Shown in pieces: positions 2,473 through 59,930 of a DNA stretch of 64,000 bases (the first letter of the stretch is position 1; the number at the start of each line of letters is the position of its first letter). The translations under genes and the position numbers were made by a program. The stretch is from Amoebidium appalachense. Taxonomy: Eukaryota; Protista; Ichthyosporea. The stretch covers positions 9,173,962-9,237,961 of the forward strand of contig CAVNZM010000007.1 in NCBI GenBank assembly GCA_963693365.1, in the 5' to 3' direction. The notes under the pieces were generated by a model that worked only from the letters and a program-made list of their open reading frames with translations, had not been told where the DNA came from and did not search any database.

Positions 2473-4874
2473 AAAAACTACATGCGTGCAATCATATAGT
2501 GCATTATAAAAGGTAGTCGTGCTATTCGTGTTGGTCCATCAAGGTGACTTGCTGCACATTTCCGACCGTAGGTTTTTGAGTGACACCGATAACGAAAGTG
2601 TCTGGCTTGCTTGCCGCGTGATAGGGCCCAGTTGGCATACGCACTTGCTCGCCTGCCTGCCCACGCCTACGCCACACTTTTTACGATAGGGAGCCCCTAC
2701 GTCTGTCAGTGTGTGTGTCTGTCCATCACCATAGCATACGTGAGGCCTTCATCACTTTCCCATGCATTTTCCCATGTCAACAAGCCGTTCCTCCGGTTGC
2801 GCAGTACGCTTGTTTCTTTAATCAGAGGGTGAACCCTACAGAGAGACCTGCCAGGTCTAGATCTTCGGTATATCCTTTCGACATTTCGAAAGTGGTACGT
2901 GGCTATGCCTACGTGCCATGCCCACTGCACTGTGATGCATGTTGCACAAAGTCACTGGGCCCAGGGAAGACTTTTTACTTGCTTGCCACTTCTTTAAACC
3001 CCCGCATGTGAACATATATACCACATGGTATACACAGACTTACCACAAATGGTAGTAGAAAGCTAGTTCGATATGAGCAAGAGTCCAAATACTTTCTTGT
3101 GCATGTGCCAATGGCATAATAAATATATCTATCGGAAGTACACACTAAAACTATTACTAACTCGTGGTCACTATTCTTGGAAGACAAATCTGACATGATA
3201 TAACGTCCAATATGATATGAACGCTAACTTGCTAAGCCTTCGACAGTCATGTTAGCCAAAACCCGCACGCGTGTTCCCTGCCTGGTTTATCTGTACAGTG
3301 GACCCGCGTCCGCACGACGTCCGCGCGTATGCATATCGAGTAAACAGCGTACTGCGTATGCGTATGTTAACTACGTACATGAATGAGTCATGCTGAGGGG
3401 TGCATTTGTTCAATTGTTCATAAAACCAAGTGTAGAAACTAATAAGCTTATCGCCCATCTCTTCCAGCTGCAGGTACTGGTGTACAGATGAGCTGTACAG
3501 ATGACAGATGCAGTTGAGTCAATGCGGACAACCAGACGAACGGCGTGGGTCTGCCTATAATTGGGCCGTGTGTCGTCTGTCGAGGCCCTAGGGTAAATGT
3601 ATAAATGTACATAAACATGAGTACCAGGCATCTGTGAAGCTACTCTGTGCATGTTGAGAGCACGTGCACGGGGGTACATTTTTAAATTTTTTCAGCTAAA
3701 TCTGTGTTCGTGTGTGCACGTGCAGCCTAAAGGCCTTGTTAGGCCGAACACCGGCATGCGCGTCGGTGTAATTAGTACCTGGCCTTCTTCGAACGGTATC
3801 CAGGCAATTATTAAATGAGAAACATGTACAAAAAGGGAGTGGAAGAGAAAAAGAACCTATACTGTATATGTTTTTCCATAACTAACTTTACCATGACTTT
3901 GTCGATGGCAGCAGCAGTTACCTAAGCGTTTACTAAGGCACCTGACTGACACTATCAAGGGAACCTCTTGCAGCTTGCTACCTTTGAGTTACAGGGATCC
4001 AATCAGATGGTCTACAAAATGCAACCAATCGGAACTCGCTGATATCTTCAATGCGCACATCAACCAGGGTTTGAAGGTAACGGTGGAGCCCATTACATAA
4101 CGGAAGTCGAAATCCCGTTTCGGAAAACCTCTTCGAAAATCGGAATGCTCCGTCGGAGCAGGCCCACCAAAAATCGCGATTCGTAATCGTCGCGCATCAG
4201 TAAACTAGGGCCTGCTTATCTGTGCCTATATTGCATCAAAATGTAATTATAATGCATACTCAAAAACCCCTGTGGTTATTAGAGGCCTTCCTGGTGCTGG
4301 CAGTTGAAGCTTTGAAGGAATAAAAGGGAAATATGAAGTGCATTAATACACAATATATATATATACTTTGTCTACGTATATACGTACGGTCACGTCCTCT
4401 TACACGTATGTGCGGCAGTGCCAGTGTATATGAGGATATATACTATGTGTGCATATGTATCTAGTTCCTGTGTGTGTCACTGTGTCCGTGGCCTTATTTT
4501 TTCCCAGTGCACGCATTTTCTTTTATTTGATGAACATGATCATGAATCATGTTACTAGCAGAGGTATTAGTTTACGCAATTTGTGCCTTCCCCGATTCGG
4601 ATTGGGTCCCTGAACCAGCCAATTTGAGCTGTTCAAATGACCAATCAAACCGCATCCTGCAACCTATATATACATGTGGGGTTTACGCTGTTTACTCGAG
4701 GCAAAGAGAACCAGTCTCAGGTATGGGGGGGGGGGGTTTTGCTCGGAATATCCCCTCAGCGGTATATCATGATCACGTACATAGATGTCGGGTGGTGACT
4801 ATATATCAGGGTTTACTTTCTCTACGAGACACCATAAAGACTACAAGGAGAAATCAATTAGTTGGGGTTCCCCG

Positions 4875-4907
<33 letters not shown>

Positions 4908-4939
4908 GGGCTCCCCTCGGGACACTCGGTATCAGCTGG

Positions 4940-4990
<51 letters not shown>

Positions 4991-5008
4991 TGTGTGTGTG
5001 TGCGCGTG
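4940..5008. repeat. (TG)n microsatellite abutting the RT stop codon
   Basis: Reads as (CA)n immediately after the RT TAG on the - strand. A second TG-rich tract at about 7501-7560 lies at the RT 5' end, and a T-run at about 4875-4902 would be poly-A on the RT strand. Confidence 0.9.
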
Positions 5009-5010
5009 CG

Positions 5011-7497
5011 CTATAATTTTGTAGTGATGTGTTTCTCAAGCCAATCAATACATCTAATAAACAGGTCGTAGTTACACGTGTTTAGTATAAAATCAAGGAT
5101 GTTGTAATTTACAGGTAGGCTATCTTTCTGGGTGTCTGTTGTGAATGTGACGTGTGTGTGTTGCGGTATTATGTGGTCTATCAAACTACATTTGGCGATA
5201 CATGACCGGTTAAACTGGTGTGTGTGTGTGTTGTTTGGGCATGCAAATGATGCCACCTTATACTTATTAGATCTCCACTGTATAGCACGTGTACAGTAAA
5301 AGCGTGGTAATTGATCAATAATACCATCAGCTAGAGAAAGACCAGTTCTACAGGAAGGTAATATGTATTTAGGTGTTATACACTTGCGAGTGCCATATTT
5401 GGCAATATGGTTGAGGCGGTCAGTATATATAAAACGAGACATAAGGCTTAGTTTTTCAAGGTGTATGCTTTCATCGGGTCTAGTGTCGTGTGGTATCTTT
5501 TTCCATTTGTTATATTGCGTGATTATCTTGTGATTGTGTACATGTTTAATAAGTAAGTGGCAGTCCAAAGTCACACACACACTATTGCGGGGTTTATTTG
5601 TATTTGTGCCCAGGGGAGAAGGGGAGAGAGAGGGGAGGAAAGAGGGGAGAGGTGAGGAGGGGACAGGTCGGATAGAGAAGAGAGGGTGGGAGGGCAAATA
5701 CTTCTTTAAGCGGCTTATGTGCTTATTGAATTTCAGCGCGAGATAGGATACTCTAGCAGCTATTGGGACCAGACCATATATCGAGAGCGTTACAGGCCCA
5801 GGTTTACAACAGTTGTTAGATAGAAAGGAGGCAACTTCTGCTTCAAGGAAATTTGCCAAGGGTTTAAGCGCTCTAGTTCTCTCTTTCTTGATCCAAGCGG
5901 CGAGAAGGGGTAAACCATATTCACATGCCGGGAAGACAAAAGTGCGAATAAATGTAAGTCTAATAGAAGGATGGAGGGGTGTGTCTTTAAAAATATTAGC
6001 CGAGAAGAAAGCTAACCGCTTACGAGCCAACTCTACCCTCTTTTCGACCATATGGGGAAACATAACACCAACAGAATCAACCGGAACACCAAGATATTTG
6101 TATTCTGGAACTATAGGTACAGGTTTAGATGATAATGTAAATGTGTGTAAATTGTTAGCTATATCAGGTACAAGAACACCACATTTGTCTATGTTAAGGA
6201 TCATAAGGTTTGCCTTGCACCACTCTGACACTACATCGAACAATCTTTGCAGGCGTCTAGGGGTACGGGCAAGGAGGGACAGATCATCAGCATAGAGAAG
6301 TGCAGGCGGAAAGTTATTAATAGGGTCATCGTTTTCGGCGTAAATCTTGACAGCCAAATCATCTATAAATAGGTTAAACAAAAAGGGGCTAAGCAATGAA
6401 CCCTGCAAGAGACCTCTAGTACGAGCAAAACCATATGAAAGATGCCCATTAACCACAGCTCTACCATAGGTTTGAGACAAGAGTGCTTCTATGCAGTGTG
6501 GTACACCCCGTGCAGCAAGCTTTTCCCATAGGAGACCAGGGGAGACAGAATCGTAAGCAGTTTTCCAATCAATAAAGCCAACATATTGTGCACCAACTTG
6601 CATAGAATCGTGCAGTGCCATTATTTGAACATAACATGAATTGTTTTTACGAAAAGCGGATTGGCATGGGTGTATGTGAAGAATAGATTGAAACCTAGGG
6701 TGATGTGCAAATAACCTAAGTAAGCAAGCTTCAAAGAATCTACGAACAACCTGGGTTAGTGTAATGGGGCGAAAGGATGATATGGGGCCCTCAGAGTCCT
6801 TCTTAACTATGGGGATCACTAAGGTATCTAACCAAGATGACGGGACATGTCCACATTTAACACACCAAGAAAAGAGAGAGCTTAACATGATAGTAAGATC
6901 AGGTTTAATAGCACGATCACTTTCCTTTTGTGGGTAGGAGGGAACAAGGATTTTAAGAAACCCAGCAGGGAGTCCATCAGGTCCACAAGACTTACTAGAG
7001 CTATAACTAGATATCACAGACCATATGGCATCGGGACTGAAAAAGGGGAGGATCGATTCTATGGGGATAGATGGGTCTACAGGCCACACAATAGGTTTCT
7101 GAGCGGGGGTCCTATCTTTAAACAGTTCCGAGAAATACTTATCAGAGTCTATGAGGGGGTCTCCAGTGGTATCACCAATAATACGAGCAGGGGGGCCAAA
7201 TCGATTCATACTAGCAAGCCGGCGCAAGCTTTCCTTTTGAGACAGGGGTTCACCTAGTCTAGCGGGAGTGGTGTTTGGTAACAAGAGAGCATCGGGATAT
7301 TCCTTCCTACCACCGCCAGCATAATCACCGAGATCTATCAAATCATCAACAATAAAGTTAGTGCATGTATCTAGTACGAGATGTGAATCTGGCCTGGCTT
7401 GTGCAGATTCTAATAGGCGCATATATATAGGGTGTGCAGGCATATGCATTGTATGTTCATGTGGCCATGCATGGCTATGATGCATATGTGGTGTCAC
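5011..7497 (-). CDS. Non-LTR retrotransposon-type reverse transcriptase, no endonuclease domain recognised
   Basis: Uninterrupted 828-aa ORF (GTG start in the track; frame open up to 7626). Motifs: KSCGPDGL, PIVKK..FRPITL, QSAFR, FIDWKTAYDSV, GLLQGSLLSPFLFNLFIDDL, YADD, LNIDKC, YKYLGV. C-terminal Cys/His cluster (ACPNNTHTHQFNRSCIAKC). No APE or PD-(D/E)xK motifs seen. Confidence 0.93.
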   Translation of the reverse strand: MTPHMHHSHAWPHEHTMHMPAHPIYMRLLESAQARPDSHLVLDTCTNFIVDDLIDLGDYAGGGRKEYPDALLLPNTTPARLGEPLSQKESLRRLASMNRFGPPARIIGDTTGDPLIDSDKYFSELFKDRTPAQKPIVWPVDPSIPIESILPFFSPDAIWSVISSYSSSKSCGPDGLPAGFLKILVPSYPQKESDRAIKPDLTIMLSSLFSWCVKCGHVPSSWLDTLVIPIVKKDSEGPISSFRPITLTQVVRRFFEACLLRLFAHHPRFQSILHIHPCQSAFRKNNSCYVQIMALHDSMQVGAQYVGFIDWKTAYDSVSPGLLWEKLAARGVPHCIEALLSQTYGRAVVNGHLSYGFARTRGLLQGSLLSPFLFNLFIDDLAVKIYAENDDPINNFPPALLYADDLSLLARTPRRLQRLFDVVSEWCKANLMILNIDKCGVLVPDIANNLHTFTLSSKPVPIVPEYKYLGVPVDSVGVMFPHMVEKRVELARKRLAFFSANIFKDTPLHPSIRLTFIRTFVFPACEYGLPLLAAWIKKERTRALKPLANFLEAEVASFLSNNCCKPGPVTLSIYGLVPIAARVSYLALKFNKHISRLKKYLPSHPLFSIRPVPSSPLPSFLPSLSPSPLGTNTNKPRNSVCVTLDCHLLIKHVHNHKIITQYNKWKKIPHDTRPDESIHLEKLSLMSRFIYTDRLNHIAKYGTRKCITPKYILPSCRTGLSLADGIIDQLPRFYCTRAIQWRSNKYKVASFACPNNTHTHQFNRSCIAKCSLIDHIIPQHTHVTFTTDTQKDSLPVNYNILDFILNTCNYDLFIRCIDWLEKHITTKL

Positions 7498-9107
7498 GGC
7501 TGTGTGCGTGTGAATGTGTGTGTGTGTGTGTCTGTGTGTGCGTGTGTGTGTGCGCGCGCGCGTGGCCGTGTGTGCATAAATGTGTTTGGTGTGACAACAT
7601 GTACATGTGCTACGCCGGCGCTGTAGTCAGGGTCTGCCATTGAACATTCAACAGGGAAAGGCCTAGGGAGACACGTACGTACGTGTGCAGCTTGTGTGGG
7701 TGGTGTATGCCCCGTGTATGATGAGACCTGCGAAATCATGAGAAGCTTCCCCACGGGGGCCGCGGGGGGGGGGGGGGGGGGGAGGGGGGGGGGGGGGGGG
7801 GGGGGGGGGAGGGGGGGGGATTCGGCCGGGACGATTTTCGGAACTGTAAATATTGGAAATTCCGATTTTTTGTAACTTCGAACCCTGACATCAACCATTC
7901 CGGTGGCTCACGTACCCAACAGACTGAGGAGTACATAAAGGGCCAGATTCGCCTCAGTTTTCCAGTATCTTTGTTATGGCGACTGGGCATGGCGTATGTT
8001 CTTAGAACACGCCTGTCACCGCCCTATGTCGACCTTCTCTCTGTGAAAAGTCGTCACCTTTATCTTCCCCTGCCAACGTCGTAAGTGGCCGTCATCATCA
8101 AAGGTAAGACATATGCTCGCCAAGCTTGCTCGCCATCGAAGCCAGAGTAGATGTCTACAAAAACCTTTCATGTCCATCTCGTCACCCATCAGTGGTACTG
8201 CTGTACGTATAAGTTGTTTCGGAATAGCCTAAAGCTTGGTGTATCTACTTAGTATCTTGTGTTCATAATGTAGTTCTCACACGACCGTTGGTAGCTGGGT
8301 GCTGAGAGTTGTTGTGTCCATTCCAAGTAAATCTTGTTGTATGTTTATGTACGGTACTGTACCTCTTGCATCTAGGGCTCAAAACGAGGAGAGAATGTGT
8401 AGAAGGAGCGCTTTAACTGAATGAGTCCTTGCCTATGTATATTACAACGGTATAGAAACACGGTGCACTATTTGCAGTCTCCTGCATCACCTATTTGTTA
8501 AAGGAGATACAACACAAACTCAACTAATAACTGCACATTTGCCCCCAACACAGCTTATGCGCACTCCCGACCATCAACATGGCCAACCAACTCCATCTTT
8601 GCGAGTCTATGGCCCGGATTTTGAACCAACCACCAACGAGTTGTGCACAGCGACCGTCAACGGCCTATGTGGGACTGGGTGGCTTCACACACCAACACAC
8701 GGCAGACAGGTAAAAAAAAAAAAATGAAATTACAGTACCACACTGAGTGTATGAAATGAACGAGTCAGAATACAAACCAACGAATACCTGTGTTGCTGCT
8801 ATACTTCCCTGTGGGTTCTGTGCACATTATCCAAAACCAAGTACAGTACTCTTCTATTTCTTCATGTGTATTTCTAACACTGCGTGTTCTATGCAGTATT
8901 CATAACTTAAATCACTGTACATGCCTAGTCAGGCTAATTGCCGTAAGAAAACATTGACTGACCTATCCGTACAGCCGTCGGAATTCGCTGTCGACCGTAC
9001 CGGCTAGCCCCCTTCTCAACGAAATAGACAACATTTTCTTTCCCTCGCTTTTTTCGGCCAATCAACAGCTTCTCTTAAATTTAAACCTGGCCAATCAAAA
9101 TGCGCTG

Positions 9108-9449
9108 ATGAATCAACGTGCAACGGAAAGTTGGGCTGCAAATATCTACAACCAAATGAACCAGAGCCCCCTTTCCAGCCCTGCGGCCGTTTCTGGCTCC
9201 CCCCTTTCTCCTCTGTGTTCCTCGACCGATTGGGGAATGTCTCTGGAAGGGGAATGGGATGCAAGACCCTATGGGCTGGCTGGATTAGAATTCAACGACG
9301 AGCTGCCATTGGGCAACGGGGATAAATCATTCTCCGGATTGAAGGAGAGACGCGACAGCGGGGTCAGCCTCGAATCTCTCCGAGAGCCCATGTCCTCCGC
9401 AAGCCACCATTTCTTGCAGCCACAGGAACCCTCGGGTACAAATCCCCCC

Positions 9450-9480
<31 letters not shown>

Positions 9481-9622
9481 AATTAAAAAACAAAAAAACA
9501 AAACAAAAAAAACACCGCATCCACCCACCCACTTGCCCACCCCCACCCCACTCCAACCCCATCCACCCGCCCCGCCCACTCACCCACCTCCCGCCCTAAA
9601 TCTCAAAAATGCACATGTGCGT

Positions 9623-9709
<87 letters not shown>

Positions 9710-10172
9710 ACGTCGTGTCCGAAAAATTGTCAACATGAAAATGATTGGGAAAAAGACATCATTTTCAGGCAACTTGTACACGTTTTGAGTTAGGTTTGTA
9801 AGTATTCATATGGTAGGTGAGTGTTTGTAACGAGAAATACTATTAGTGAAGAAATAAATGAAGAAGTGCGGCAATTCTGAGTTTGCCCTTGATGGATGTT
9901 ATGTAACCAATATGTGCTTTGGGCATCCAAGCACCGAGGGAAAAACCATCCTCTAAAATCGACTCAAGCTCCCCGCTCTTTCCTACTCGACTTCTTGCCT
10001 GCTAAATCTATCCCTTATCATGACCCCATCCTCCCCCCCTCCGCTCCCCCTCTCACTTCCTCTACTGCCTCCCACTTTCTCTCACTTGCCTATCCCGTTC
10101 ATTATAAATCTTTTTGGGTGCCTTCCTCCCTCCAGAAAAATAAAAAAACCCTCTTCCCACCCCCTCCCCTCC

Positions 10173-10210
<38 letters not shown>

Positions 10211-11985
10211 AACACAGCCAGTAACAAGTTCTCCGTTGCCGACTTCATATCTACCCTGGACATCCGCAATTCAGACATGATGTCTTTTTCCAACCAACAT
10301 AAACCCAATCCCACCACCGAACCAGCCACCTGCGTGGAAACCAGCAAGAGGAAAGTGGACGATGGACATATGGCGCTGCACCGCACAAAGAAGCAACGGC
10401 CCACCCCTCCGGCCACACCAACACAGCCAGAGCCCAGTGAGGCCAACAATGTGGTTGCAAAAAAGGTATTAGCAAGCAACCCCCCCCCCCCCCCCCCCTC
10501 CCCCCCCCCCCCCCCCACCACCACCACCACCATCCCAGCTCACACACACGCACACACGCCGACACAAACAAACAATATCACCCTGCCATCCCCCATTTCC
10601 CTTTCCTTGCCCACCCACCCACCTTACCCACTCCTTTTTGGCTATGTGTCCCCCCCTCCCCCCGTGAAGATGATATCATGGAACTTCTCCCTCCCCCCCC
10701 CCCCCCTCCCACCCCCCTCTTCACCCCCCCCTTCCCCCCCCCCCCTCCGTCCAAAAACCTCCAAAAAACAAGAAAGTTAGTCCCCGACCCCCGCCGCCCC
10801 TCCCCCTCCCCGCCCCCACCCTACCCGCACCCCTCTCCCATCCCTCCCCCGCCAAAATGTAGTTCACCCACAAAAATGGATCTGTCAGAAGTGTTTCCCA
10901 TATTCGCATGGCTCGCACCAGCTCAAAGGGTATCATAGTGCCCGCAACTTTCGAATTTATTTGCCACCCTCTTTACACTTCTCAAGGCATAAGAAACAAG
11001 TCACCCTTCACTAAACCTTTTCAACTGCACCCTTCCAGGAATCAGCCCACACGGGCACTGATCTTCTCCCCCGTGCCATGCTCCTCAATGCGGGCCTGTG
11101 GGAGGATTTCCATCGCCATGGCAACGAGATGATCATCAGTGCACGTGGTCGCAGCATGTTTCCTGTCCTGCGATTGGCTGTGTCCGATCTCGACCCCCAA
11201 AGGCTCTATGCTGTGTGGGTGGTGCTCAAGAAGACAGCAGACACAGTGAGTCCGCCCCTCCTCCCCCCCCCCTCCCCTCACCACCACCACCACCACACAC
11301 ACACACACAACCCCGCTCCCTCGCACTCCCTTCCCTCCTTCCCCATAACTACTCCCCCCCCCCCCCCCCCCCCCCCCCCACCCACCCACCCCTGCAACCA
11401 TACCCTAATACCTAGAGTACCCCTATTGTCTGCTTCCTCTCCGGCCATCATTTTCGTGCTCCATTCCCCTTACCTTCGTTTCCCCAGCCACCCCCCCCCC
11501 CCCCCCCTTTCCCACCCCCCCACCCCCTCCACCCCCTCATTCCCCCTGCCTCCCATTTACTCAAGAAATCGGATACCCCTGATTTAGCATACCATCACCC
11601 GGTGATTACCTTGGCTAATATCCACACCCCCCCCCTCCCCCCCCCTTCCCCTCTACAGCCGTTCAAGTGGAATTCATCCACCCGTGAGTGGGAGGCCGAC
11701 CCGACCCCAAGCGAGTGCACCGATGACAGTGGCCACATGGCCACATTTGTGCACCAAGAATCCCCCACAATGGGTATGTGCCCCCTCCCTTCTCCATCCC
11801 CCCCCAGAACCAACCACCCACCCACCCACCCACCCACCTGGCAGCCGCCCAAAACATGCACACCTCAACCTACCCCCTCCCCAAAAGCTCGCCCGCATGC
11901 GCAAAGTGAGATACAGAATTGGAAGACATGCATGCCATTCTCAAAAAAGTATGGATGACCAGGTAGGATTGCTGCCTGTTCCCGC

Positions 11986-12023
<38 letters not shown>

Positions 12024-12141
12024 ACTACCCACCCACCCACCCACCCACCCAACCCACCACCCCACCCCTCCCCCTACTTCAACAGTCTTTGCGGTTACAA
12101 TTTCGATATAGCAGAGCATAAATAGTCTGACCTTTGTTCAT

Positions 12142-12172
<31 letters not shown>

Positions 12173-13424
12173 GGCACGCTTCCGCCCATCCCTCCCCTCC
12201 CCCCACCTCCCCCCCCCCCCCCAAAAAAAAAAAAAAAAAAAAAAAAAACAAAAAAAAAAAAAAAAAAAAAAAACACAGGGAGCTACTGGATGGCTCAGCC
12301 CATCTCCTTCGACAAGATCAAGCTGACCAACAACAGGCGCCTGGTGCAGCCCAACCGCCAAAACCAATCAAATCCGCGCAGACACGTGCTCCTGACCACG
12401 TTCTTCCGCTACCAGCCAATCATCTACATTGCTGAGTGCGGCAACACGTCCAAGGGCCCAGACATGGAGCCTGCAAGCACCGCATTCCGCTACGAATTTC
12501 CTGAGACCTCTTTCTATGCTGTCACTCAGGTATCTCCCCCCTCCCCCCCCCTTTCCCCGGGTGTCCCCCCAACCCCCTCCCCCCCCCCCCTCCCCCCCCC
12601 CCCCAAACACATACACACAAACAAGTCCTGCCCACCCTTACACCTGCGCAACCATCCCAAACAAACCTTTGAGCTCATGGGATGAGCCAATTTGCATCGA
12701 TTGGTAAAGGGGGGTAAACAGGTAAGCTTACCGGCTTAGTGTTTTAATCCGTTTGATTGGAGCTTCAATATGGCAACAAGATTAAACGTTTGATTGGTAG
12801 ATGTCAAATCGATTGACCGGTTCGTCCCATTATTGGATGTGTGTGAAGGCGCTCCAATCACAGATGTTTGCCGCGCTCCCAAATGTCGACAGATGATTGG
12901 AGCGCCTTCAATATGGCAATACAGATTGCTAAATCGATTGGTGCTACTACACCTCGGATTGACAGTTTAGCGTTAAGGTTTGTTTCCCATGATCCACATC
13001 CACACCTTCTCCTTATCTATCCTTACAGATTCCTCCTTTTGCTCTCTACGTTCTCCCAGGGTACAATATTCTCGCACCCAATCCTTCCTTACGCTCAAAC
13101 ACACCAATGGCTTTGACTGCTCCCCCCATTGCCCCCCCCTCCCCCCCCCCCCCCCCCCCCCAATCATCCCAACCCAAACCGACTCGCTTCGGCCAGAGGT
13201 CATGCCTGATTTCACTCTGCCGAGTGCCGTGTCCTTTTTCATCCTTTTTATACTCACACATGTCCAAAGTGCTAAATAATTATTCAACCAACTAACCTTC
13301 TCCCCCCCCCCCCCCCCCCTCTCCCCCCACCCCTCCCCCTCCCCCACAGTACCGCAATCAGGAGATCACTAAGCTCAAGGTGCAGCACAACCCCATGGCC
13401 CACGCCAAGATCCCCAAGTTCTGA
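9108..13424 (+). CDS. T-box transcription factor (6 exons, ~407 aa, C-terminal T-box)
   Basis: Exons 9108-9435, 10218-10465, 11039-11245, 11659-11773, 12279-12529, 13350-13424; all GT-AG and phase-compatible. T-box motifs: LWEDFHRHGNEMIISARGRSMFP, LDPQRLY, FVHQESPTMGSYWM, ISFDKIKLTNN, RYQP, FPETSFYAVTQYRNQEITKLKVQHNP. The first two exons are less certain. Confidence 0.9.
12685..12945. promoter_or_regulatory. Intronic cluster of CCAAT/ATTGG boxes with a 17-bp inverted repeat
   Basis: Repeated TGATTGG/CGATTGG/CCAAT motifs; TGAAGGCGCTCCAATCA (12844-12860) is the reverse complement of TGATTGGAGCGCCTTCA (12894-12910). Function is inferred. Confidence 0.45.
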
Positions 13425-17261: not shown

Positions 17262-18358
17262 TCCCTAAACAACTCTAACGATTCTACTGATCGGGCATTC
17301 ATGTGAAGGAAAATAACCTATTTCTTCTAAAAGCTTGTGGGGGAGGGCAAGGGAGAGATGACATAAGCCCACAGAAGATCTTTTGGGGGTGTCAAGTTGG
17401 GGGGCTTCAAAATATGTTAAAATTTCCTCTCAGGTGCCGTTAGAGAATCTCATGTTCACGTGCTATGTTCACGTGTGTTTTATGCGTGCCACGCTCACGA
17501 CCCCTGCCTGTTTGTTGTGGGTGCTGAATTGCGTGCCAGTATGCAGATGCGCGCCAAAACTTTGTTGGCCAACATGGGCAGCTGCTCACACGCAACTGAT
17601 TGGTGGCAGATAATCTGCACTCAAATTGAGGCCCAATCAGCACAAACCGATCTTTCGTTCGATTTTTAGGGGATATTACAAAAGTTGATATAACATTCAT
17701 ACTAAAATGTTAAACAGTTAAAACGGTAAGATTAGCTCTTTTTAGCGTTTAAAGCATGTTAAAAGACCAATAGGATCTTTATTCGGGACGCAGCTGCTGC
17801 CGGCACGACAGTTCCACTTACATAACACCCCACCGGCCGTTGTGGACAAAGTAATTTATATAAGACAGCATATGTGTCTTAGTATCATTTCATCAATGCA
17901 CCCAAAAGGGTCAACTAAACACAGTTTATTTTTTTTTACTCCTACTAATCAATTGAAAGAATTACGTATGCTGTACAATTTAACATGTGTTGATCACCGT
18001 CCCATAGATGCACCTTCATTGCAAGAAATCTCCTTTAAATCTGTTGCCCATTTCCAGCCACTCTAAAAATGCCAATCGTTATTCAATATTCCTAAACCGA
18101 TTTTGTACTCCCCCCATCTTATTGGCCACAAGACTCGAACTATAGAAAAAAACTTTGTCCAGTAAAGGCATTCCACATGTCCACTTTTGAAATAATCAAA
18201 ACGACACAGTTGCAGTTGCGGCTCCAAACAAGCAGTTGTGCACGTTTGTTCACTACTCCTCTCATACGTTTTCGTTTTCCTACCATTTATATATCAAGCA
18301 TAGGCAGATTATCTCGCAGTTTTGCTAGTGTTAGCGTTTTCACAGTGTGTACGGAAAG

Positions 18359-20496
18359 ATGGGGGGCATTCTGTCGCTAAGGAATCAGGAGGAGTCCAAG
18401 ATTGACGGGTATGAAAAGTACCACACACAACATGGGGGTGATGTGGAGAAGAGGAAAGCAGCATATGCAGATATGGTCAACAAATACTACGATCTTGCCA
18501 CAGATTTCTATGAGTGGGGTTGGGGTCAGAGCTTTCACTTCGCACACCAAAGAAAGAACGAGACTTTGCCACAGAGCATTGCCAGGCATGAACACTACAT
18601 AGCCCTTAGGCTCAAGCTTAATCCTGGTGACAAAGTTCTGGATGTGGGTTGCGGTGTGGGGGGTCCTTTGAGAGAGATTGCACTTTTTTCTGGTGCTCAC
18701 ATCGTTGGGCTCAACAACAACGCCTATCAGGTAAGGAGGGTTGGTTTCCCACCAGGATCTGTGTTTGCAGTCAGGAGTGCCCATGTGTCGAACCTATGAG
18801 ACGTCTTTCACCTCATGACCATGTTATAGTGTCTATCTTGTGTTGCTTTTACCTTCTGCTGAAAGGGCTTGGGTCTCTCTTAGCACCGTAGACAGATCCT
18901 TAAAGTAGTTATTAGCTCCATTGGCTCTGGATTGGCTTGATCCCTCTGCAGCATCATGATAGTGGATGCTGGAGTACAATCGCATGTGTTTACTGCCTTC
19001 TGTTAGCAGGGCAGGAAAGAAACAGCTGCCTGCTACTACTCTCTAAACGTTTTACACAACACCTTATTTCTCACTGCAAGATTCTGCTCTCCCCTTATGT
19101 ACTCTCGTGTACCTCTTGTGTCGCTACCACCTTAAAGGGATGTACTGGGAGACAAATACCTTGTAGGAGCTTGACATCATCTTTGCACACCCACACCAGG
19201 GAGCTCCAGAAAAACACACCCTAGCATGCTAGATGTGGAGCAATCACCACCACAATGAACATAAGCCCACACACACACACCAGCATCCCTAAGCTGAATT
19301 GCCTGCCTACGCGGTACTCAGCCGTTCGAGGCTCATGAAAAGTTTAAGTTCAAACACACACCAAATAGCTGCTAAAAACCTTTCAGATTACCATTACCTC
19401 TCACCATTTTTTTATTTTATTGCGTTTTATTCCCGGAGAGCCTTTGCTTTCCCTCTAGGGAAACTACCGTCTACCACACAGCACCGACAGTACACTAGTT
19501 AAGGATTACCTCTCACCATGACGTCTAACATACAAGTACAAATAAGTGGCTCTTTACATCCGATTCGACTGTCCAAAGGGCGTGGAGGTGGTTGAATGCG
19601 GCAAACTGGGGTCTGCTTTAGTTGATGTTGTTTGCTGCATCTCGGGCATCAGGCTTCATATTAGTGCATGGTTTCTTTGGCTTTGGTACTTGTTACTGTC
19701 CTTTCGGCCCTAGCATTTGGGCAGATGTTTCTGTGTGATACAGTTTTTGGCACATCCTAACAGTCCGTGGTGTGACGACAGATACAACGGGGTGAATTGC
19801 ACAACAGACGAGTAGGCCTAGAGAAGACATGTGGCTATGTTAAGGCCGACTTCATGAACATCCCCCTGCCAGAAAACTCGTTCGACGGTGTGTATCAGAT
19901 TGAAGCCACCTGCCATGCACCTGACAAAGTGGGCGTGTACAAGGAGATCTTCCGGTAGCTCCCCCCCCCCCCCCCCCCCCCCCCCTCCACCTCTTAACCC
20001 ACCCCACCCACACCCACCCCCTTTCCTGCCCCTCGGCGGTTTCGAACACGCTCGCATACGCATTATTGAACATCCGACACACCTACCAGGTTCCGGAATT
20101 CACCTATGTTGCATTTTGTGCGTGTTTTATGTCACATATCACTGGCATGACCCGTCTCTTTTGTACCTCGTACTGTGTATCATATGCTCAAACTTCCTTC
20201 TATCCCTCCTGGGGATGAACTCCGCCCCCCCCCCCCCCCCCCCCCCCCCCCAACTCCCGTCCCCCCTTAATAGCGCATTCAACCCCCCCCCCCCCCCTGC
20301 CGCCGCCCCCTCATTTTGGAGAACGGGGTCTATTTTTGCTGCATGCTTGTTGTGTGGTTTTGTTGAACCTCGTAAGCACTGCCCGTTTTTACCAGTGGGT
20401 TACAAATTTTTGTAACACATCCCCCCCCCTCATGCATACTCTTGTGTTCGAGGTTTTTTTTGATCTGTGTTCGTAAATGTGTGATTCGTGCTGAAG

Positions 20497-27558: not shown

Positions 27559-35594
<8,036 letters not shown>

Positions 35595-35799
35595 TTTTGC
35601 GCACTAGACGGATACCTAAACGTGTACGAGGTGGCATTTTACACTAGCTATGCTATGAGGATGCATTTAAAAGGGACTCATTTCCTGGCTAGTAACATGA
35701 GACTCCTGCAGCGCTCACTTATACTGTGCACCCTACAACTGCTGCAAATCTAGCCGTCGGATGACAGGCAACTCGGAGTGTATTGTTGCGCAAACTGTT

Positions 35800-35841: not shown

Positions 35842-36078
35842 CCTCCTGTTTATATCATCCCCCGACCAAGCCTGCACGGCCGGTAGTCCGTGCCCGGAGT
35901 ATTTTTTCCTAATGTTTTCCTGCTTGTTGTTATGCATATGTCGTGTACCGTGTGGTGTGGATTTAATGACTACGCATTTCTTATAGAGGTCAAATTAGCA
36001 AAGCAGGTCTACTGCTTTATCAAATATCCAGTTCGTTTTACTTTTTTTCGTTTGCATACGACGCCAGATCTAGACACC

Positions 36079-36761
36079 ATGGCAGCAAGAACAGTGATCC
36101 ACGACCTGATGAAACCATATGCCTTTCTTCTGGGCACCTGGGTGGGCACCGGAGAGGGCTTCTATCCCACAATTTCGAGCTTCCTATACAGGGAAGAAAT
36201 AACATTCACCAATAATCCACTAGGAAAACCTGTATTTTCATACACACAGAAAACTTGGAACCAGGCAAATGGCCAACCCATGCATTCCGAAATGGGCTTC
36301 CTCCGTGCTCATCCTAACGGACAGGGCTGTGACTTCAGCATTGTCCAGGTGAGCCTTCTCTCTGCTTCCTTAAACGTCTTTGTAACCCCTTCCCAAACCC
36401 CCCTCCCCTCAACCCCACCCACCCACACACACACACGCACACCGTGGTTCCACATGGCCTTAGATGTGTCTGTCACTAGCACCAGTCTGATCTAGCACCA
36501 GTCTGATCCTTCTTGCAGGTAACGGGCATCACCGAAATCGAGCAAGGCAAACTTCTGGATGCACACACACTTGACCTCAAGAGCACGCACTTGGGACGTG
36601 GTGAGTCCGGAAAACACCCTTATGCAACGGGGGTGGAAAGGACGTTTAAGCTGCACGAGGACGGGTCACTGAGCTACACACTGCGTATGTCCACGGAAAA
36701 CACACCACAAATGACGGACCATTTGAAGGCAATATTCCAGAAAAAGCAGGAGGCTAATTAG
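36079..36761 (+). CDS. THAP4: Nitrobindin / THAP4-like heme-binding beta-barrel protein (DUF1794; 2 exons, 170 aa)
   Basis: Exons 36079-36348 and 36519-36761. Motifs: LLGTWVGTGEGFYPTI, YREEITF, GKPVFSYTQKTW, PMHSEMGFLR, TGITEIEQG, and C-terminal TDHLKA (heme-ligand His). Confidence 0.92.
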
Positions 36762-43877: not shown

Positions 43878-44317
43878 GACGGTGAATTCAGGTTTTTGGT
43901 AGAGGGAATGGACAGTCAATAGAAGTGCTCGATGGATGTTAACATTACGCGGGTGGGCGAGCGGGTGACCGAGGAGAGGGGAGGAAGGGGGGGGGAGGGA
44001 GGGGGGAAGGGGGAGGGGGCAAACGGGGAAGAGGGGGTAACGAATAAAGAGATTTTTTATTTGTCTGCACTCTGTTGCATCCATATATACTTGCAACACA
44101 TCCGGCTACCGAAATACTCTTGGGCATGACGAGATCCTCCATTCCACCACATTCACTGGGCATACAATACTTGGCGCATAGCTATACACACACAAGTGGG
44201 ACAGACAGGGCGGCGCGGCGCGGAGCCGCGGGGGGGGGGGGGGGGGGGGGTGGGGGGAGAGAGAGAGAGAGGGAGGTTCTGGCAGAGACCGCTTACACGA
44301 TGTCTGTGCACACACAG

Positions 44318-44348
<31 letters not shown>

Positions 44349-45655
44349 TCCACACACACACATCCACAAACACCCCCTTAATGGTGTACATCTCCTACCC
44401 CCCCCCCCCCAAAACCTGCCCCCGTTCTCCCCCCCCCCCCCCCCCCCCCCCCCCTCCCCGCCCTCTCACCTTTCCCCACCCACCTACCCACTTCCCTCAT
44501 CACCACCACCACCAAAACCACCACCACTTTTTTTTTTTTTTTTTTTTCCCTCCAAATTCACAGGCGAGACGATGCTCAAGCTGCACGCCAAAGAAATGGA
44601 CGAAGTTCTAGGGATGGACATGGACAAGTGGCAAGCATTCCTCAACAGTATCATTGCCGTGGCCGTGCTCACGTGTGCCTTTGATATTACCGACCGCCAC
44701 CACAACAACGTCATGCTTAGCCCCGACGGTAAGCTCGTGCTGATCGATCTGAGCGCGAGCCTTGGGTATAAGGCGCCCTTGGATAAGAACCTCAAGATGA
44801 ACCCCGTGTACCTGCCTGACCGCATCAGGAAGGTGGGTGCACATGTGATCACTATGCCCCTCACATTTCCATTTCCCGGTCCCATTTCCATTTCACCCCG
44901 CACATTTCCAGTTCCCCGTCAGATTTCCGCTATGTGCATACACGTGGTGCTGCGGGCAAAAGCTGAAATAGGTGACTCACAAGAATGATTAATATTGAGA
45001 AGGCAAGCGCCGGGGGGATGGGGGGGGATGGGGGGAACCTTCTTGTTGCTTGGTTAGCTGCGTTGTGAGCACGACGTCTGGTGAATACGAGGTAGGGAAA
45101 AGGTGTAGAGAAAGGAGTCGGTGATTTTGTTTCTGTTTTTTTTGCCCCGTGGGGGGGGGGAGGGGGGGGGGGGGGAGGGTGGAGGGGTTTGGGGAAGGAG
45201 CGTTGGGGGGGGGGGGGGGGGGGGGGGAATGTTCTGAGGATTTTAAGGTGGGTAAGGGGGCTTATGAGATGACCAATCACGATAATCGTCAATTAGATTT
45301 AAATAACCGCTGTGATTGGTTACAGACTGGGTTTAAGATCCGCGACAAGGCCAACACATCGGACCTGCAGCACGAAGTGGCCGAGTCGTTCAAGACGAGA
45401 CGCTGGAGCGACATTGAAGAATACATGATGACGGGATACTACGCACTGTACAACGACCGGCGCCTGGAGAAAATTCTCGAGGATGTAAATTACAAAATGC
45501 CGAAACCCCACGTGTTTTTGGGGTTCTTGAGGGATCGCAAGCACTTGCCGCAGTTTAAGGAGACACTGAGGAATGATATTGTTGAGACGATGGACAACAA
45601 TGCGACGGTGAATAAGATGGTGGCGGCTATATGCTCGGTGGTACCCATGAACTAA
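38978..45655 (+). CDS. Atypical stand-alone PI3/PI4-kinase-like protein (8 exons, ~510 aa)
   Basis: Exons 38978-38984 (ATGGCAG), 40947-41274, 41635-41682, 41979-42110, 42726-42850, 43395-43688, 44564-44832, 45326-45655; phase-compatible. Motifs: FNSRKLP, YIYKQDDDISMD (cf. KxGDDLRQD), TYKVI..GFCEVVP, DRHHNNVML, IDLS (DFG position). The 5' exons are less certain. Confidence 0.82.
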
Positions 45656-46794: not shown

Positions 46795-48425
46795 CGGGGA
46801 GGGAGGGGTAGGGGAGGAGGAGAGAGTGCGATGCCCGCAGCGTCGTGTCCATGCACTAGGGCAATATGTGTCCGTGCCAGGTGGTGTGCATAAACATACA
46901 GCTTTGAGCAACGTTTTCATGAGTTTTTGAAACTTGATGACCTATCCATCGTACGCCGTTATTTCTCTGTGCTATGACCTTGGACAGAATGCAAGTGTAT
47001 TAGTACTGCTGGTACTGCGGGCATAATATGTACAGCCTCGTGATACCAACATGGAAGTACCTCCGATGCTGTTCATGTGATATGAGTCCCCATCCGATTC
47101 GAGGCTTCAGGCCTGGTGACCCGTGCCCGCGTCTCTCTCTCCAGGGCCTCCCGGATGCTGCGCGCCAGCGTGTGCCGGCACTCCTGCCAGGGAGGACGAG
47201 TCGCGCAAACTTTCCCGCCACATTCCACAACGTCCCAAAACATTCCAATATGAATCCCCCAAAACTCATATGTGTGGGGTGAGTCGTATGTGTGTAACAG
47301 TGGATTACGATTTTCCAGTTTCGACATTTAGGCCACGTAAAATTCCGTTACAGACATAGGACTGCATGTGGATCTACATATGTTAAAAATCAATAAATTC
47401 ACGCTAAACATGGGTCTTTTAGTTTAACGAGGCTCCATTTTTCGTAGCTACTAGCTACATACTGTTACACACATATGGAAACGGGGTCTAAAATTCCCGG
47501 GAGCGTAGGTACGGACATATGATCGCCCCCCCACTTAGAAGTGTTGGGGGATCCCCAATATTTACAAGTAAGCCAATTAAAATGATCTTTGCCAAGATGA
47601 GCGAATTGCTGCGTTTTCCGTCAGTTGAAATGGAATGTTGGTAAATACAGAGAACAATACTATACGAAATACATATATGCAATTCGAATAATATGGGTAT
47701 TCAAATTTATCTACAGGCAAAATAAATTTATAAACCCCCCTATAGGGGAGCTTCATTGAAAGAACCGGTAGTTGTATTTTCAGAATGTCAACGGAAGCGC
47801 GTAACGCTGCCTCACGTACCGAAAGCAGCCTGAGCGGACCACGGCCGAAAAACGTGACAGGCGAAAGCAACAGATGTGTTTTATGTTTCTGTATGGCACA
47901 GCCCAACCTCTTCCTTTCATCCCCTCTCCTGCACAAAGGAAGGTCGCGAGCACACACCATTATTTAATCCGTAGGCGGTCGAAAAGGCAAATTTTACTGT
48001 TGAAGAACGGTTCTCTCGTTGATCAATGTTTACTCATACTCAATCAGGCTAATCGATTTCGTCTTTCTATAGTTCTTAGTTTATGCCAAACATCTTGTTA
48101 TGTCACAGCCGTATGCCAATAGAGAGGTACCGCATACATAACTGCAGAACAGCTCGCGGTTCCCTTGTGGTTCTGCTGCCATACAGTAAGAAACCCATGT
48201 GCTCCTCATGAAGAGGCCCGTATGCAACATAAGCGAAAATGTACACTTTCAGACACGACATCATTACGACAGTGTGATCAAATGTCCCGTCAACGTTTCA
48301 ATTTACAAACGTAAACCTTTTTTTTCTTTAAACTTATACGCGCCAACTGGCATGGCCTTGCCACCTGGAATCTCACCAATTAACTCATTAACAAGTTGCG
48401 CGCCAACTCAGGCGCTTACACCAAC

Positions 48426-54860
<6,435 letters not shown>

Positions 54861-58070: not shown

Positions 58071-59171
58071 AGTCAGCGCGTGGGTGGGAGAGAGGGAGCT
58101 GATTCGGGAATTAAGATTGGAAAGGCAACCCGAGACCGAGGAATAAGGAAAAAGGCGTTGGGAGAGATCCAAAGGCCGAGAAAATGGATGCGTAAAGGGC
58201 CAGGCAGAGGGGACCTTCGGGGAGTAACAAAAAGGAGCAAGGCAAGGGGAGCAGAGACCATGCAGAATCTAGCAACCACCCAAGATGTAAATCGCGTGCA
58301 AACAAAAAAGAGGCTAGTCATATGTGGAGCACGAAACTTGGAGCAAGAATAAATAAGCTTCAAAAACACTGAGGCACGCACCAAACTTTATGTGTAAGTG
58401 TTTGCACCGACGGTCATCGTGCAAATTCTGTTTACCAACGTGCTGCCCTCACGGGTGTAGACATGACAAAATAAAAAAAAAGGGTGATAGGGGTGCCAAG
58501 TAATAACTGCTTTATAATCTAGGATTATTCACTCAACACATCACTGGGAGAGACCCAACACACGTCATTCACCAGCTTTTTGAGACGTTTTTGGCAATTT
58601 CTCCGCCGTGGTTCATATGCATGACTGGTGACCACAGAAAACGAGCCTGAAGAATTGCAGCACTGACAGAGAGCAAATCAATAACCTCTAAAATTTTACC
58701 TACTTGATTACGACCAATAACAATGTGAGCTCGATGCTGTCAGAGCGCTGTAAAACGCATCGTGATGCCGTGCGCAAATGAAATGCAACCATTCCAAAGA
58801 GTCCAGCCGACCACAAGGCATTTACGTTTTTTTGGCCTGTGAGTGAGGAAAAGAGGGAAGATTTTTTTTGCCTATTATTCTTAGAGACAAATTAGGTTGT
58901 TATAAGCGGAAATATCCGCTTTAGTTGTTTTAGTGAATTATCGTTTGAATGTATGGTCCACTCCCCTTTTTTTTTCTCTCTCGCCGGTATTCTGTGGACC
59001 TCAAACGGAAATATCATAGAGTGGTCGGGGATTCATATTCTTTTCAATCAGTGCTACAGGGACGCTCTTAGTGTTGAACCAAACCTTCTTCCTACTGTTT
59101 AACTAGACATCACCGAGGGGTGGCTCTACATCAAAACTAGTAAACACGCTGCAGCGGAACATTAGGATAAA

Positions 59172-59930
59172 ATGGGTGCGGGGGAGCGCAACACGCCCAC
59201 ACCAAACTACCGGTTGGTGGTGTTGGGTGATGGTGCTGTGGGCAAGTCCTGTATGACCATCCAGTTTACTCGCGCCCAGTTTGTGGAGGACTATGACCCG
59301 ACCATAGAAGACGCATACAGAAAGCAGTGCGTGGTTGATGATCAGGCTGTTTTGCTGGATATTTTGGGTAAGTTTTTGGGGTGCTTTGAGGCTAAAGAGC
59401 TAAGCAAGGGGCAGGAAAAGGATGTTTGTCAGCAAAGGGTTGGGGGCATGTGCATTGAATGGGGGCTATGTACTACAATTGGTGGAGGCACTTCTCAAAG
59501 CATCTACATACTCCAGAAGTGGACACACACAGACACATGATCACAGGCACACAGGCAATCACGAGGGGCCATTGTGCATAAACCAAAGCACGTTCACAGA
59601 CACACATACACTTTTGAGCCTGGGGAACAGTTAAACACCCGTAATTAGTCATATGCACACCCACCCACACTCGTGCACATGCACACAAGCACAAGCATGA
59701 ACACAGACACACAGACCCATGCAGATTCGGCTCTATGCATTCACACACCTGTTCACAATCGGTGAGGGCAGTACAAACACGCACACACACATTCACACAC
59801 TCACATGCACCCGTGTGCACCTAGCCACACACAACAAGGCATACAGACAGGACACACGCGCACGTGCATGCACTCACCTGCACTCAAGCACATGTACGCC
59901 TGCATGCATACAGCACGTAAACGCACACGT

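Follow-up and report, generated by a model that had tools for sequence, protein, structure and literature searches.

The nested element and its surroundings

The window analysed here is one stretch of 64,000 nucleotides of the Amoebidium appalachense genome (contig CAVNZM010000007.1). It contains two nested repeats (Table 1): an outer element with short terminal inverted repeats (TIRs) and an 8-bp target-site duplication (TSD), and within it, on the minus strand, a LINE copy with a long open reverse transcriptase (RT) frame. A first-pass annotation had presented the pair as a candidate class I/class II hybrid. About 1 kb downstream of the element lies an intron-rich gene for a T-box transcription factor (about 8958-12700, plus strand), with PF00907 matches in the frames 11015-11584 and 12131-12682. 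Further pieces of host genes were identified in frames of the window; of these, the PI3/PI4 kinase scored slightly below the cut-off. Long poly-C/poly-G runs and CA/GA microsatellites abound in introns and intergenic DNA and produce many spurious long frames.

Table 1. Features of the window (positions count from its first letter).
Feature	Position	Strand	Evidence
Left TSD ACATCAAC, 8 bp	4057..4064	.	sequence; element-free contig joins 4048 to 7892 in 3/3 DNA runs
Left TIR	4065..4079	+	13/15 match to right TIR
Left arm, non-autonomous hAT-like element	4065..4677	.	CGGAA/TCGAAA-type motifs, AAAATCGGAAT at 4136-4146; repeated by contig depth
5'-truncated APE-type LINE copy, 2757 bp	4678..7434	-	3' end 4678, truncation 7434; contig loose ends, joint 4674 to 7433
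LINE 3' UTR, 333 bp	4678..5010	-	sequence; boundary from contigs
Remaining LINE ORF, 807 codons + stop	5011..7434	-	Pfam RVT_1; 98% identity to P0001, 4-residue gap
RT domain, then thumb and C-terminal Cys/His region	about 6082-6804; YADD 6283-6294	-	
Right arm, hAT-like element	7435..7887	.	arm contigs 30-46 times flank depth; fall at 7888
Right TIR	7873..7887	-	sequence; AAAATCGGAAT at 7859-7869 just inside
Right TSD ACATCAAC	7888..7895	.	sequence
SAM methyltransferase	18335-18796		window frames
C2H2 zinc-finger protein	32333-35603		window frames
THAP4-like heme-binding barrel	35887-36492		window frames
PI3/PI4 kinase	44182-44985		window frames; just under cut-off
Subtilase + I9 propeptide	48384-51691		window frames
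Ras	59166-59537		window frames

Ends and arms of the outer element

The outer structure is as the first-pass annotation had described it. Two exact copies of ACATCAAC form the TSD, and the TIRs, of 15 bp each, start at 4065 (CAGGGTTTGAAGGTA) and, on the minus strand, at 7887 (CAGGGTTCGAAGTTA), with 13 of the 15 positions identical. The subterminal motif AAAATCGGAAT is present on both arms, in plus orientation on the left and minus orientation on the right, and motifs of the CGGAA/TCGAAA type are repeated, the left arm having more of them. We scanned the whole window for 8-bp direct repeats flanking inverted ends with at least 12 of 15 positions alike. Eight pairs were found, seven of them CA/TG microsatellite artefacts and the remaining one the element at 4057-7895; the chance expectation for such a pair, assuming uniform composition, is about 0.014. 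The TIR pair was not among the repeats reported by a repeat search of the window, and blastn and tblastn within the 64 kb gave no second copy of the TIR element or of the LINE.

The element has the features of hAT transposons: an 8-bp TSD, read exactly and at this locus only, short TIRs (usually below 20 bp) with subterminal repeats, and dispersed copies that stop precisely at the TIR in contigs of the sequencing runs X1, X3 and X8. Its first letters, CAGGG, presumably fit the hAT end consensus. As the first-pass annotation had noted, it carries no transposase: Pfam found RVT_1 (E 9.5e-29) and neither a transposase nor an endonuclease in the RT frame (7626-5011), and no hAT transposase was present among the 13 window frames scanned. 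A 519-aa frame (34047-35603) considered as a transposase was rejected, as it encodes the C2H2 zinc-finger protein. The left-end pattern of the element was not found in metagenome contigs. Superfamilies other than hAT also make 8-bp TSDs. Since they do, and since we found no autonomous partner, we call this non-autonomous element hAT-like, a superfamily call based on its terminal features. In most contigs of the TIR family, the interior upstream of 7436 is unlike the left arm of the window (regions 4600-4677 and 7436-7500); hence, the family has at least two subfamilies.

The RT frame and the LINE copy

The RT frame, on the minus strand, runs from 7626 down to a stop codon at 5011-5013, i.e., 871 aa from stop to stop. 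The 828 aa given in the first-pass annotation count from a GTG at 7497; counted from the first ATG, at 7485, the length is 824 aa. The LINE itself accounts for only 807 codons (7434-5014). The first 63 nt of the right arm prolong the frame by 21 codons, up to the GTG, which we regard as chance read-through. No stop or frameshift occurs across the 807 codons, which fits a young copy and would also fit selection. The frame is open, as had been claimed, but the RT is not intact. The endonuclease is missing, and an in-frame 12-nt deletion between 6490 and 6491, inside the RT, has removed four residues between RT motifs (GVLL in the related protein P0001, introduced below). Other contigs have the 12 nt, and the gap occurs in 1 of the 23 aligned rows. 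Given the absence of the N-terminal endonuclease and the loss of these residues, the RT of the window is a damaged fragment rather than an intact stand-alone enzyme; the copy also lacks its own 5' end and, to judge from its sequence, was likely dead on arrival. At about 5527-5613 (minus strand), it has some 29 in-frame residues lacking in P0002 and in the other aligned relatives. Contig depth there is no lower than in the neighbouring bins, so these residues are probably common to the LINE family in this organism.

The 3' UTR contains (CA)n, an A-run, and a C-run, and its terminus is an imperfect 9-bp repeat followed by four C; a terminal poly(A) is lacking. We considered the A-run at about 4875-4903 as a poly(A) tail and rejected it, since the ends of the family cluster at 4677/4678. 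The first-pass annotation had found no LINE-type TSD around the RT. One exists, but it is short: our reading of the junctions gives 1-4 bp, a length that is ambiguous because of a 2-nt microhomology at the 5' junction. Without the LINE, its empty target reads through as CATGTGCAGG.

The LINE family encodes an endonuclease

A homolog search with the RT frame returned 236 proteins, and the figures that follow are from the 120 listed. The best match among these is P0001, a EukProt record labelled Amoebidium parasiticum, which is identical to the window frame at 479 of 490 positions (98%) from His65 (nt 7434) onward. Before His65 the two differ, and P0001 has 253 additional N-terminal residues. 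Outside Amoebidium, the nearest relatives among the matches listed are unnamed proteins with 46% and about 30% identity.

Several lines of evidence identify the additional region as an endonuclease. When the window frame is aligned with 22 homologs (23 rows), the N-terminal region has conserved Asn, Glu, Tyr-x-Pro-Pro, Gly-Asp-x-Asn, and Asp-His positions, which we take to be the motifs expected of APE endonucleases. Positions 2-211 of the family profile match LINE-1 endonuclease chains with E values from 1e-11 to 1e-8 (1vyb, 9.5e-11; 8sp5, 5.4e-11), and the profile matches the whole L1 ORF2p at 4e-66, its best PDB matches being L1 ORF2p and R2 proteins. In a fold search, the AlphaFold model of P0001 (mean pLDDT 81.5) gave matches to L1 ORF2p at full length (E 1.7e-28) and to the L1 endonuclease alone (1vyb, E 1e-7). 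Among the 120 listed homologs, 70 have at least 560 residues before YADD, with GDxN there in 67 of them; 48 are shorter N-terminally, none of these with GDxN, and 2 have no YADD match. In P0001 and P0002 the endonuclease escaped Pfam even at an E value of 1, and of 21 proteins only 3 (P0009, P0018, and P0020) had it above the curated cut-off. Hence, the domain is divergent, and profile and fold searches are needed to see it.

Longer copies of the family therefore encode APE and RT in one frame, which contradicts the proposal of an RT natively devoid of endonuclease. The family is a LINE family in its other traits as well, with a non-LTR-type RT domain (RVT_1, with L1 ORF2p and R2 as best structure matches) and, from contig ends and depth, a shared fixed 3' end and variable 5' ends. 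Its closest relatives among the matches listed are proteins of about 1000 aa in which a single ORF encodes both APE and RT and the C-terminal part has a Cys/His motif. A search of metagenome contigs with P0001 gave 19 pattern matches, none confirmed as a related locus. Among the published titles covered, which leave out Repbase and most subscription journals, none concerned a TIR-plus-RT hybrid or these Amoebidium families, and the LINE clade may be undescribed.

Both components occur separately

From 24 runs listed, we aligned public short contigs of runs X1, X3, X8, and X20 to positions 3400-8600, and those of X1, X3, X8, and X15 to 7412-7911, where X15 had none. The contigs are mostly of 50-250 nt, and our counts of loose ends are the contigs listed, i.e., minima. 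Positions 7412-7428, at the LINE 5' junction, are uncovered in X1, X3, and X8; a contig filter can drop pieces, perhaps the same one in each run. X20 (presumably an RNA run) has contigs on the LINE and not on the arms. We draw no conclusion from either gap, be it on the junction or on expression.

The LINE occurs at many other sites. Its 3' end at 4677/4678 is followed by unrelated flanks (agreement 0.39-0.40) in at least 45 contigs of X1, 28 of X3, and 47 of X8. Past 7435, at least 9 contigs of X1 and at least 2 of X20 encode the ten P0001 residues that precede the shared stretch; these are other LINE copies, continuing toward the endonuclease. The TIR element likewise occurs on its own: in X1 (depth 35.8) and X3 (20.3), 4674 is joined to 7433, which corresponds to the element without the LINE, about 1.07 kb long, and all 12 listed contigs with loose ends upstream of 7433-7444 go into a LINE-free interior of the TIR element. 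Two X3 contigs depart at 7887 into other flanks. Finally, a joint from 4048 to 7892, present in all three DNA runs (X1, X3, and X8), represents a version of the site that lacks the TIR element. With 3843 bases skipped instead of the 3831 expected, and with several differences in the flanks, it is a diverged allele or a paralogous site.

The contigs also contain other junctions. Position 4678 is joined to 4705, 4810, 5750, 7429, and 7887, placing the LINE 3' end inside other LINE copies and, in one X8 contig (depth 17.1), beyond a right TIR at a distance of 5 nt. This second adjacency of the two families points mildly toward amplification of the composite, but it lies outside the element and fits independent insertion. 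G or GTG stands at the end of several LINE targets, which may reflect a preference for certain sites.

Contig depth, which is a rough measure of copy number only, indicates that both families are repeated. Summed depth over the left arm is 10^2-10^4, against 15-77 in the flank. On the right arm, single contigs reach 30-46 times the flank depth, and exactly at 7888 the depth drops by a factor of 22 in X1, 29 in X3, and 56 in X8. At LINE position 5076 the mean contig has 86-225 times the flank depth, declining toward 7434. Since the LINE depth exceeds that of the TIR arms, most LINE copies must lie outside TIR elements. In the right arm, the letters that the window has at 7613/7616 reach a depth of 24.1 out of 7042.9 in X1, where the flank has 50.6, and no contig of X3 or X8 shows them. 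With less than one flank depth, this lineage of the arm would be single-copy at most in the three runs, which argues against its amplification.

Origin of the nested structure

Our results are best explained by nesting: a non-autonomous hAT-like element of about 1.07 kb contains a 5'-truncated copy of an APE-type LINE, and this copy was likely dead on arrival. We give this reading a probability of about 0.9. As the LINE and the TIR element each occur without the other, an ordinary, one-off nested insertion is the most likely origin, rather than a new kind of hybrid. The first-pass annotation had offered this very option, and the contig junctions and the longer, endonuclease-bearing copies support it. 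Such copies were what it had said would speak against a hybrid, and they exist outright, in P0001 and in the contigs past 7435. The other observation it had named to that effect, that all other TIR copies lack the RT, holds as far as the short contigs reach.

The structure could have arisen as follows. A transposase encoded elsewhere, probably of the hAT cut-and-paste type, would have inserted the TIR element and duplicated ACATCAAC. A full-length LINE located elsewhere would then have been transcribed, its APE nicking a site within the TIR element and its RT copying the RNA at the nick by target-primed reverse transcription. Copying would have ended after 2.76 kb, just before the endonuclease region, and the 5' junction would have been sealed through the 2-nt microhomology, leaving the duplication of 1-4 bp. 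In such a scenario the RT would have no part in moving the TIR element. Since the LINE-free joint is not assignable to the locus 4057-7895, we infer the order of insertion there, TIR element first and LINE second. According to PMC11244446, about half of the A. appalachense genome consists of transposable elements, and nesting is therefore to be expected; its supplement text names LINE only as a class. Copies of L1 that are 5'-truncated typically have short TSDs and microhomologies (PMC2912911).

Could the LINE have been carried to this locus instead? It may have entered a TIR copy elsewhere, the 3.8-kb composite, with the LINE as passive cargo, being then moved here and perhaps to a few further sites by a transposase acting in trans, with no role for the RT. 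The well-kept TIRs, subterminal motifs, and TSD suggest that the composite could be a substrate for a transposase, and the existence of an element-free version of the site implies that the insertion is not very old. However, the letters of the window-type right arm do not exceed single-copy depth where they are found, LINE-free joints with a window-like left arm exist, and none of the 12 listed arm contigs with upstream loose ends leads into the LINE. We consider this history unlikely, although it has more in its favour than the other alternatives. The arm-letter depth speaks against an amplified composite and is compatible with a single move or a small number of them. More doubtful still is a young composite lineage, the TIR element and the endonuclease-less RT having been carried as a unit to several sites by a hAT-type transposase. 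The RT and the TIRs are not a usual travelling unit, as had been suggested, since LINE-free TIR copies and TIR-free LINE ends are both seen.

The remaining explanations have very little probability. In a true class I/class II hybrid, an endonuclease-less RT would copy the element via RNA and a hAT transposase would integrate the cDNA through the TIRs. The idea draws on the union, in a single element, of TIRs and an 8-bp TSD with a long open RT frame that has YADD and for which the right arm provides in-frame ATG codons. Yet the RT is a fragment, 98% identical, of an APE-bearing LINE of the same genus; it begins and ends at a truncation junction and at the LINE's own 3' end, lacks four residues kept in all 22 other aligned proteins, and each partner is found without the other. 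An equally slight chance attaches to a chimera, i.e., two repeats wrongly joined in the source assembly. No listed contig piece spans the whole stretch, the best runs containing 0.80-0.83 of the sampled words, and the left-arm letters at 4212, 4220, 4297, 4366, 4406, and 4559 are in no aligned contig of X1, X3, or X8. These letters could be private mutations, assembly errors, or the effect of filtered contigs. Against a misjoin, the 3' junction lies exactly at the natural end of the LINE family, the two junctions rebuild an empty target with a 1-4-bp duplication, which would be unexpected, and the border between right TIR and flank is matched without differences in X1 and X3.

A nested truncated LINE in a DNA transposon is ordinary here and of little wider weight. 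A real hybrid would have paired RT with DDE transposase in the absence of LTRs, and that would have been new; if the composite lineage were true, a hAT-type transposase might one day integrate products of a LINE-derived RT. What the locus provides is clean boundaries for two apparently young Amoebidium families, useful in repeat annotation. One is an APE-type LINE whose 3' end is not poly(A) and whose duplications are very short; the other is the non-autonomous hAT-like element.

Comparison with known systems

The inner copy resembles 5'-truncated copies of APE-type non-LTR elements with an L1-like ORF2p, with which it shares an RVT_1 RT with YADD. In L1 ORF2p the APE is N-terminal in the same ORF, as profile and fold indicate for this family. 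Truncated LINEs have many 3' ends with unrelated flanks and a depth that drops toward the 5' end, and the same is seen here. Truncated L1 copies also combine a short TSD with microhomology at the truncation, like the LINE of the window (PMC2912911), and 5' truncation is described as common in a survey of Capsaspora (PMC4007536). There are differences: the structural alignment of the P0001 model with human L1 ORF2p has 18% identity, proteins of this family have about 1000-1070 aa compared with 1275, and, unlike L1, the LINE of the window has no terminal poly(A) tail and a TSD of just 1-4 bp.

The outer element has its counterparts among non-autonomous hAT elements, of which maize Ds is an example, and hAT MITEs. 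With elements of this kind, for example mRover1 of Lachancea, it shares an 8-bp TSD, TIRs shorter than 20 bp, repeated short subterminal motifs, the lack of a transposase, and a copy number in the tens (features as in PMC4316626). Compared with a typical MITE, the present element is longer, about 1.07 kb without the LINE, and its interior varies among copies. A TIR shell around foreign coding sequence, as at this locus, is also found in Teratorn, a piggyBac-like transposon fused to a virus, and in DNA transposons with Fanzor cargo. These carriers are described as composite or widespread, whereas at this locus, for which the contigs gave no sign of several composite copies, the cargo is a defective piece of a LINE family that also occurs on its own.
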